Source of the DNA: Escherichia coli
GTDB taxonomy: Bacteria; Pseudomonadota; Gammaproteobacteria; Enterobacterales; Enterobacteriaceae
Direction: 5' to 3' (one strand)
DNA length: 64,000 bases
Assembly: GCF_048403405.1 (NCBI RefSeq)
Contig: NZ_CP183129.1
The notes beneath the pieces are model-generated. The model did no database searches. It saw nothing but the letters and a program-made list of their open reading frames with translations, and was not told the DNA's origin. A program made the translations under genes and the position numbers. This document shows positions 1 to 807 of the stretch, in pieces. Numbering within the stretch: position 1 is the first letter of the stretch; the number at the start of each line of letters is the position of its first letter.

Positions 1-22
1 TTAGGGTGTCTTTTGATTTCAT
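1..22 (-). CDS. ydfK: Start of a ydfK-like prophage cold-shock-inducible gene; only the first 7 codons (MKSKDTL) are inside the window
   Basis: Reverse complement of nt 1-22 reads ATG AAA TCA AAA GAC ACC CTA, matching the YdfK N-terminus as I recall it; the gene runs off the window edge. Confidence 0.35.
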
Positions 23-807
23 GAATATATTCCTTAAAATATTATTGATTTTCATTGCGATATTGTATGTCTGATTCAGGATATGTTGACTTATACATCG
101 GTTTTGTCTGGGTTATTGGATATGCCAATCCCTAATTTTATTAGAGCATGACTAAAAATGCTGAATATGATAAGGAGCGAAGTGATTATCAGTATGCTGT
201 TCATATAGCCTCGAATTAGTAATGTGTTATATATGATATAGTTGACAATTTTTATCCTGGGTGTTCTTAAAGTTCGTAGATAAACATTGTCGTTTCAGGT
301 ATACAGGAATGCTAACAGATGGCGGCAAAAATCAGGCGGTTTATGGCGCAAGCTGAAGTGGCAACTGCAAACTATCTTATGCAGAGACTCTACACGGATT
401 GGGTTTAAAAGTATACATAGATAACAGTTTTTATCTGAAGAAGAAAAATATCAAGGTGATATAGCCTATATGCCTTTGATGCGGAGGAATGAATGTGATG
501 GGAGTGATGTATCTGAATAGTTGAAAAACCGCAGACACGCCTTATGCAAGAACGTGCTGCGGTTGGCTGGTAAATTTTTCGATAGTGCGAGTATTGAATG
601 ATTTCCAGCCGTTATTGATTTTACGCGTAACTCCATGAAAAAACTACTTATCTGTTGAGGAGTTTTTTTGGGGCATATATGGGACAGAAATAGGCCCCAG
701 ATAGACACTGAGATCGAACTTAGGATGCTTTTTAAAAAATGCAACTATCTGAAAAAACCTAGAAAACGCCAAGGAAACCACAGGATGGGAAAAAACACCT
801 GTGAATT

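Follow-up and report, generated by a model that had tools for sequence, protein, structure and literature searches.

The DNA analysed here, a 64,000-nucleotide stretch of Escherichia coli that we call the window, opens with the start of a gene that runs off its left edge, continues through a spacer, and then enters a transporter gene, ydfJ, that lacks its N-terminus. The locus raises the question of how these pieces came to lie side by side, and of whether the spacer, with a G+C content of 36.8% over positions 23-807 compared with 47.5% for the whole window, holds any genes of its own. A preliminary description had read three elements from the sequence, namely the beginning of a ydfK-like gene, a truncated ydfJ, and a 29-codon open reading frame (ORF) in the spacer, and all three are present where it had placed them. 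It had also taken the start of the window to be the edge of a Qin-like prophage by which ydfJ was disrupted, and this reading agrees both with our comparison of attB, attL, attR, and attP sites and with the annotation of Qin in K-12. The best overall explanation is that positions 1-816 are the right (attR) end of a Qin-type lambdoid prophage that was inserted in ydfJ by a tyrosine integrase, a reading to which we would give a probability of roughly 0.93.

Over positions 1-1000 the window is 100% identical to E. coli strain Ch1 and 98.7% identical to K-12 MG1655. The same junction is found in 2,005 of 5,426 complete E. coli genomes, where a match was counted if it covered at least 80% of positions 1-1000, and the RefSeq annotation of matching genomes was used to place ydfK, ynfT, the ydfJ pseudogene, and ydfI. 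The K-12 reference record and RefSeq annotation already contain the prophage boundary and junction, along with ydfK, ynfT, and the truncated ydfJ, and the locus has little significance beyond its correct annotation. Mapping of the crossover to 9 nt, together with the layout of the phage arm, may aid in the design of Qin excision assays.

Attachment site and strand exchange

The origin of the junction can be followed by comparing four sites: intact ydfJ (attB), the far end of the prophage in Ch1 (attL), the free phage Tritos (attP), and the window itself (attR). Strain LS45 carries no element at this position and has the gene order rspA-rspB-ydfJ-ydfI, with an uninterrupted ydfJ of 455 codons whose DNA homology to the window begins at about 802-808. 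The Ch1 attL contains ydfJ codons 1-28, followed by the core TGAATTTATGGATTTC and then by phage DNA and a tyrosine integrase; the tyrosine-type recombinase and an excisionase adjoin rspB, outside the window, as identified by annotation. Tritos is 99.5% identical to window positions 205-819, after which it continues into a P' arm identical to that of the Ch1 attL and then into int. A core is thus present at both prophage ends, with TGAATTATGGATTTC at 802-816 of the window as the counterpart of the attL copy in Ch1.

In short form the sites read TGAATTTATGGATTTCCAG for attB, TGAATTTATGGATTTCAAG for attL, TGAATT-ATGGATTTCCAG for attR in the window, and TGAATT-ATGCATTTCAAG for attP in Tritos. Extended on both sides, they read TTGAATTTATGGATTTCCAGTT for attB, GTGAATT-ATGCATTTCAAGAG for attP, TTGAATTTATGGATTTCAAGAG for attL, and GTGAATT-ATGGATTTCCAGTT for attR (window 801-821). 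Between the T indel to the left and the A/C difference to the right, strand exchange can only have taken place within ATG[G/C]ATTTC, which corresponds to window positions 808-816 and is represented there by ATGGATTTC. Alignment with K-12 leads to the same place. The K-12 record lists a 'cryptic prophage Qin' at 1632277..1652745 and ydfJ at 1631002..1632285, and the two overlap by a crossover sequence of 9 nt (1632277-1632285) that maps to window 808-816. Because the Qin boundary in K-12 falls on these same 9 nt, the junction must be regarded as already annotated.

The site is not peculiar to one phage. Two prophages integrated in ydfJ, JX2 and NZRM4169, carry different cargo, which beside the junction of NZRM4169 consists of a dinI-like gene and DUF1076 effector-like genes, and both have the same core and about 270 bp to its left at 80-91% identity. 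Since they share core and arm, several phages evidently use the ydfJ site.

On this evidence, the phage attP recombined with codons 26-33 of ydfJ, with the exchange placed within 808-816. The truncation itself could in principle be the product of a simple deletion or rearrangement that was independent of any phage, with the ydfK region as a mere neighbor, but such a view accounts for the truncation and for nothing more. It does not account for the 28 lost codons at the other end of the prophage, where they are joined to phage DNA through the same core, nor for the matching attP in a free phage, nor for the intact alleles that lack the whole element. The comparisons with the LS45 attB, the Ch1 attL, and the Tritos attP refute a simple deletion of ydfJ, and we consider its likelihood negligible. 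Phage insertion at this core instead split ydfJ in two, leaving a 427-codon 3' part that starts by accident at a Met codon of the core, with a TGA of phage origin closing the frame upstream.

The ydfJ remnant

The 3' part of ydfJ, which is to say the gene of an MHS-family MFS transporter minus its first 28 codons, occupies positions 808-2091 on the + strand and encodes 427 amino acids. It is followed by ydfI at 2181-3641, as placed by the RefSeq annotation of matching genomes. Compared with residues 29-455 of the intact 455-amino-acid YdfJ, 425 of the 427 residues are identical. The NCBI annotation pipeline (PGAP) calls this ydfJ a pseudogene with a missing N-terminus, whereas in the K-12 record it appears as a normal CDS. 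An in-frame TGA at 802-804, which the preliminary description had noted two codons ahead of the ATG at 808, is indeed present. The TGA is phage sequence, and the ATG is an internal Met codon of ydfJ that lies inside the core. No Shine-Dalgarno motif was seen ahead of ATG 808 on direct reading of aaaaaacacctgtgaattATG.

The first 28 codons of ydfJ occur in no frame of the 64-kb window. They are found about 48.6 kb away at attL, beside int, in Ch1. In K-12 the same 28 codons belong to YnfP, a 36-amino-acid protein (MTIEKHERSTKDLVKAAVSGWLGTALEFMDFKSHAC) encoded at attL, which VanOrsdel et al. 2018 (PMC6001520) list with the other small proteins that they found.

How much of the transporter was removed can be estimated from the TIGR00883 (metabolite/H+ symporter) profile. 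Residues 23-418 of intact YdfJ align to profile positions 1-400, and the fragment aligns to positions 7-400 of 400 with a score of 453.5 bits, which passes the cut-off of 443.45. The fragment is nonetheless not full-length, as residues 1-28 and profile positions 1-6 are lost and the first transmembrane helix (TM1) is incomplete. Because alignment still begins at profile position 7, the cut lies inside TM1, and what was lost, judged from the profile, is the cytoplasmic N-terminal tail plus a few residues at the beginning of the conserved core, where TM1 starts, rather than a whole helix. The limits of TM1 are taken here from profile coordinates, since a Kyte-Doolittle hydropathy scan gave no sharp boundary. 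The preliminary description had stated that ydfJ lacks its first transmembrane helix; it was right about the N-terminal loss but not about the extent, as the cut is within TM1 and positions 7-400 of the profile are retained.

The native upstream region of ydfJ, together with its N-terminus, is now at attL. The remnant is thus presumably without its native promoter and is likely to be non-functional. The "ydfJ" of Qin-bearing strains is accordingly to be understood as a remnant cut in TM1 and parted from both its native upstream region and its N-terminus.

Comparison with Qin, Rac, and the Ch1 prophage

The body of the prophage lies outside the window, to its left. In Ch1, the sequence to the left is a 48.6-kb lambdoid prophage that ends beside rspB, with the order pinQ, tail, head, terminase, lysis, Q, replication, cI/cro-like, dicB, exo, xis, and int. 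Several of its genes are frameshifted or partial, among them gpJ, a tail fibre gene, and ydfB, while int and xis are annotated as intact. Qin of K-12 is alike in its integration site, its core, its terminal genes (pinQ, ydfK, and ynfT), and its 427-codon ydfJ remnant. It differs from the Ch1 element in being a 20.5-kb remnant with an intQ pseudogene, compared with 48.6 kb containing int, xis, exo, and head and tail genes, and it differs from the window in that the 29-codon ORF discussed below starts with GTG rather than ATG. The label Qin-like, given in the preliminary description, is therefore apt for the insertion point and terminal genes, but the gene content of the decayed K-12 Qin is not shared by Ch1, which is identical to the window over 1-1000 and whose element measures 48.6 kb rather than 20.5 kb.

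A second K-12 prophage, Rac, ends in a closely similar way. Its pinR-ynaE-ynaM ... ttcC end is 99% identical to window positions 1-566, and the features in common are the ynaE/ydfK start, identical YnaM and YnfT proteins, the filler that follows, and a hairpin. Beyond the hairpin, from about 566-580, Rac differs in having another attachment arm, and it sits in ttcA/ttcC, not in ydfJ.

The phage attachment arm

Moving inward from the junction, the prophage end is arranged as the P arm, a possible scar of dinI, a hairpin cassette, about 270 nt of filler, and ynfT-ydfK on the reverse strand. The P arm of the phage attachment site covers about 653-801 and is continuous with the Tritos attP. Three arms that elsewhere are 80-91% identical all carry TGGGGCATATATGGGACA (669-686) unchanged. 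Arm-type-like repeats resembling ATGGGRCA are located at 668-675, 679-686, and 785-792, and two more are found in the 3' end of int. This gives five copies in the same orientation within 226 bp around the core, for a motif that is common when one mismatch is allowed (19 occurrences compared with 10.8 expected). The P' arm holds the sole perfect IHF consensus in the 6.6-kb Tritos locus, a motif match 16-28 nt past the core. The repeats of the P arm presumably bind integrase.

The arrangement can be compared with that of lambda attP and attR, in which a P arm with Int and IHF sites is followed by a 15-bp core and a P' arm, and the geometry is comparable. The tandem repeats here are about 125-142 nt left of the center of the core, and the annotated Int sites 1 and 2 of lambda are at about -148 to -97. 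The lambda P' arm overlaps the 3' end of int, and here two repeats at +62 to +82 likewise lie in the int 3' end, with an IHF consensus between the core and P'. The differences are that the Tritos/Qin arm and core have no sequence homology to those of lambda, that the integrase and IHF sites here are putative ones read from motifs, and that the core is imperfect, attP and attB differing in it by one indel and two mismatches. Two reverse-strand ORFs in this region, at 466-744 and 644-781, were set aside; both overlap P-arm and deletion-scar sequence, and nothing corresponding to them occurs in related arms.

ynfT and ydfK

At the other end of the spacer is a pair of reverse-strand genes. The 5' end of ydfK occupies positions 1-22, where the reverse strand reads ATGAAATCAAAAGACACCCTAA and encodes the first seven codons, MKSKDTL; the rest of the gene lies beyond the window's left edge. 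The ydfK-like gene had been noticed previously on the reverse strand, and its start is confirmed at nt 22: the sequence matches the annotated ydfK of Ch1 and K-12 exactly, and the start is invariant in 10 homologous copies. The intercistronic leader between ynfT and ydfK (23-90, reverse strand) includes the ydfK Shine-Dalgarno sequence AAGGAA at 35-30, and it can be aligned even in relatives that are only about 75% identical. Prematurely terminated leader RNAs bound by Hfq have been reported for both ynaE and ydfK, and ydfK has been described as a cold-shock gene.

The gene upstream, ynfT (91-204, reverse strand; b4748 in K-12), encodes a 37-amino-acid hydrophobic small protein of the YnaM/YnfT family according to RefSeq. 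A gap of 68 nt separates it from ydfK, which follows it on that strand, and it is preceded by a GAGG Shine-Dalgarno motif. The protein is identical to K-12 YnfT/YnaM and scores 63.9 bits on NCBIfam NF041477, above the cut-off of 35. Its pattern of change is that of a coding sequence under constraint in both near and distant relatives: compared with 2H10, differences at the three codon positions number 1/0/4, with four synonymous and one nonsynonymous, and in distant homologues the ORF is intact, with 13 of its 21 nucleotide differences falling in the third position of a codon. These distant ynfT-ydfK homologues are IMG/VR loci in which YdfK is 88% identical and the DNA about 75% identical; the IMG/VR search with the YdfK protein yielded 28 loci, and an exact-DNA anchor search yielded 3 contigs. 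Tagged YnaM/YnfT copies of both Rac and Qin have been detected, and they were positives in a tetracycline ribosome-profiling screen (VanOrsdel 2018, PMC6001520); YnaM was found to be relatively abundant by Weaver et al. The small gene that the spacer does hold is ynfT, encoded on the strand opposite to the 29-codon ORF. It does not figure in the account of the spacer given by the preliminary description.

Upstream of ynfT, a further stretch (205-257, reverse strand) is conserved. Homology with the distant cassettes runs from window position 2 to about 253-257 and then ends, and because of where it ends, the ynfT-ydfK promoter is probably within 205-257. A consensus scan for promoter hexamers of ynfT-ydfK gave weak sites at the level of shuffled sequence, and manual inspection of 205-257 gave no convincing -35/-10 pair. 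The hexamers of Shimada 2014 were set aside, as they differ between the ydfK and ynaE copies, even though the two are near-identical in sequence here.

The 29-codon reading frame

Between ynfT and the hairpin lies about 270 nt of filler, which is common only to Rac, Qin, Tritos, and 2H10-type phages; the whole of 258-525 is absent from the more distant ydfK cassettes. It contains the 29-codon ORF MAAKIRRFMAQAEVATANYLMQRLYTDWV on the + strand at 319-408, with AGGAA at 305-309. Ten copies of window 1-648 were aligned to follow its history: those of the window, Tritos, K-12 Qin, K-12 Rac, three IMG/VR contigs, 2H10, DG342-2, and 18KM2445, with DG342-2 and 18KM2445 representing prophages integrated in prfC. 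Three of the copies start with ATG, four, among them K-12 Qin and Rac, with GTG, and three with ATA.

Could this be a real, lineage-restricted small protein, made from an unannotated + strand transcript? The ORF is intact, with its AGGAA placed 9 nt upstream of the ATG; it is also intact, with a GTG start, in K-12 Qin, Rac, and several IMG/VR contigs, and it has been called as a hypothetical protein on three contigs. The comparative data go against this. The three of ten copies with ATA, which make up the approximately 90%-identical 2H10/DG342-2/18KM2445 clade, also have in-frame TAA and TAG stops at codons 19 and 22. The 13 differences between the window and 2H10 are distributed 5/4/4 over the codon positions, and the change is nonsynonymous in 11 of the 13 codons affected and synonymous in 2, with the body of the ORF (337-384) being the most variable part of 205-528. 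ORFs of this size are also expected by chance, as random sequences of 785 nt and matched composition contained a mean of 3.4 ATG-started ORFs of at least 29 codons; at least one such ORF was present in 98% of simulations, and at least one with a Shine-Dalgarno-like motif in 22%. There is no + strand promoter-like site upstream, no annotated feature under 205-530 among the 40 listed of 2,808 matching RefSeq records, and no NCBIfam match for the peptide. In a collection of 15 billion proteins, the exact peptide is called on 3 contigs compared with at least 999 for YnfT. On these grounds a real small protein is very improbable. The peptide string was not found in the literature searched, and the locus is not mentioned in the supplementary tables of PIRT-Seq and Adams 2021. 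Because neither start codon nor frame is kept, no pattern of purifying selection is seen, and the size is expected by chance, the ORF at 319-408 is most reasonably read as a product of chance within phage-end filler and not as a gene. On evolutionary grounds it is presumably not expressed. The preliminary description had correctly reported an ORF with an AGGAA in an AT-rich spacer and had flagged its reality as uncertain; its existence stands, its status as a gene does not, and it should not enter small-protein lists.

The hairpin cassette and the dinI scar

Beyond the filler is a conserved cassette of about 100 bp (526-624, reverse strand) that consists of the 3' untranslated region and hairpin that follow dinI-like genes, dinI itself being gone here. 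The cassette is found in about 200 phage records, among them lambda, in its b region (24162-24256), and HK97 (20943-21041), where it is immediately left of the annotated sib site. In 2H10, NZRM4169, DG342-2, and 18KM2445 it comes directly after the stop codon of a reverse-strand dinI-like gene, and the dinI-like gene of 2H10 has two LexA-type boxes (CTGT-N8-ACAG) ahead of it. The window and JX2 are missing about 200 bp of dinI compared with NZRM4169, by a deletion that in the window joins 652 to 653. The adjoining stretch at 625-652 (reverse strand) may be a degenerate 3' remnant of the dinI-like gene, and we tentatively regard it as the scar of that deleted gene, the call being tentative because only 17 of 28 positions (61%) are identical.

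The hairpin of the cassette, at 527-564, has a folding energy of -21.1 kcal/mol (z = -3.1), and two of its base pairs show compensatory changes among six phages. On the reverse strand it is followed directly by UUUUU, while the + strand has no U-run. Leftward transcription in the int sense is probably terminated by the hairpin on the reverse strand. In lambda and JX2 the U-run is missing, and since it is not conserved in these, a terminator role would not be universal.

The same hairpin raises the possibility that the + strand from about 424 to 564 is a small RNA with the hairpin as its end, akin to CssrB of Shigella (Rfam RF02799). An Rfam match over 424-561 of the + strand, covering model positions 1-180, has E-values of 0.0007 in a 621-nt search and 0.0034 in a 3,000-nt search, but its score of 28.7 bits compares with a gathering threshold of 76. 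The match consists almost wholly of the shared 3' hairpin, with the middle of the model replaced (87 nt vs 49 nt). The strand is also wrong for such an RNA, as the U-run of the hairpin is on the reverse strand; the only + strand promoter-like site in 1-1000 is at 13-40; and positions 457-480 are poorly conserved. The assignment to CssrB, being far below threshold and driven by the hairpin, was rejected, and a + strand RNA of this kind is improbable. The literature searched for CssrB yielded nothing but chemistry papers on unrelated subjects.

If the hairpin acts on the reverse strand, its position invites comparison with sib and tI of lambda and HK97. The likenesses are that a hairpin and U-run are found on the int-sense strand, that they lie beyond attP from int, and that they are parted from int in the prophage. 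The hairpin is 236-275 nt from the core here, compared with 137-186 nt for the sib of HK97. It is not a homologue of tI/sib: the HK97 sib (21042-21091) is a separate sequence between the cassette and the core, there is no homology between the two, and the cassette is the 3' end of dinI in related phages. By analogy, a dinI-type hairpin might have taken on a sib-like role in Qin/Tritos-type phages, with the int mRNA meeting a different fate in phage and prophage, although we consider this rather unlikely. Under such a scheme, the hairpin would be the first strong terminator-like structure that int-sense transcripts meet past attP; in the circular phage it would be downstream of int, and in the prophage about 48 kb away. 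Were this true, an unrelated sequence would have been recruited to a sib-like role. The cassette is also found at mosaic boundaries of many lambdoid phages, including that of the lambda b region.

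Hairpin cassette at module boundaries

The sequence at window positions 526-624 is a cassette of about 100 bp found repeatedly at the borders between modules of lambdoid phages, in about 200 records including lambda (NC_001416, 24162-24256) and HK97 (NC_002167, 20943-21041). Wherever dinI is present, the cassette lies 3' of it, and it is retained where dinI is absent, as in the b region of lambda and in HK97, where it adjoins sib. Its hairpin (527-564) is structurally conserved, with two compensatory pairs. The point at which homology with neighboring modules breaks differs between phages, falling just left of the hairpin (~526-529) in some and either right of the hairpin (566-580) or at the cassette end (~625) in others. 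The hairpin also drives a sub-threshold match on the + strand (424-561) to the Rfam family CssrB, a Shigella sRNA, which suggests that the family itself was derived from a related prophage-end cassette. The strand assigned to CssrB is the opposite of the dinI-sense strand, on which the hairpin is followed by a U-run.

In the NZRM4169 prophage, a CDS annotated as "DinI-like" (NZ_CP032789.1, 4089-4331) has its start ATG within the conserved arm-type repeat (TGGGGCATATATGGGACA), and its first residues, MPHRYPAAKINK..., do not correspond to MRIEICIAKEK..., with which the full-length DinI-like protein of the related phage 2H10 begins. This dinI-like gene appears to have lost its 5' end and to be joined to the P arm of the phage attachment site.

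Attachment core and the split ydfJ gene

The attachment core (802-816) is not identical in attP and attB, which differ by a single-T indel and at two mismatched positions, C/G and A/C. At the central mismatch, the bacterial G is found in both attL and attR of Ch1, a strain identical to the window over positions 1-1000, which implies either heteroduplex repair or a G-bearing attP allele in the phage that integrated.

At the far prophage end, 28 orphaned ydfJ codons read through the core into phage DNA (NC_000913.3, 1652728-1652838; Ch1 prophage, 48452-48640). These codons are annotated in K-12 as part of a 36-aa protein, YnfP, so that each half of the split ydfJ has an annotated product. The other half, a remnant of 427 codons (NC_000913.3, 1631002-1632285), is an ordinary CDS in the K-12 reference, "putative transporter YdfJ," whereas the identical sequence is called a pseudogene with a missing N-terminus by PGAP in other records, a second MG1655 assembly among them. 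Annotation of the remnant is therefore inconsistent between the K-12 reference and PGAP records.

ynfT and ydfK cassettes

The spacer in which the preliminary description placed a 29-codon ORF (319-408, + strand) also holds, on the opposite strand, ynfT (91-204, reverse), which lies upstream of ydfK and is annotated as encoding a 37-aa hydrophobic protein that has been experimentally detected. YnfT is conserved even where the DNA of the ydfK cassette is only about 75% identical. A second clade of ydfK cassettes is present in IMG/VR contigs, with YdfK 88% identical and a ynfT homologue beginning MDNTLII...; homology of these cassettes to the E. coli copies is limited to window positions 2 to ~255.

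Composition and Ch1 prophage cargo

The G+C content of the whole window (1-64000) is 47.5%, lower than expected for a typical E. coli core genome, which is around 50-51%. The Qin-type prophage of Ch1 carries an IS2 insertion adjoining gnsB (26350-27578). Cargo lying between its lysis and Q regions (32135-33811) is annotated as encoding the lipocalin Blc and a YbgA-family protein.
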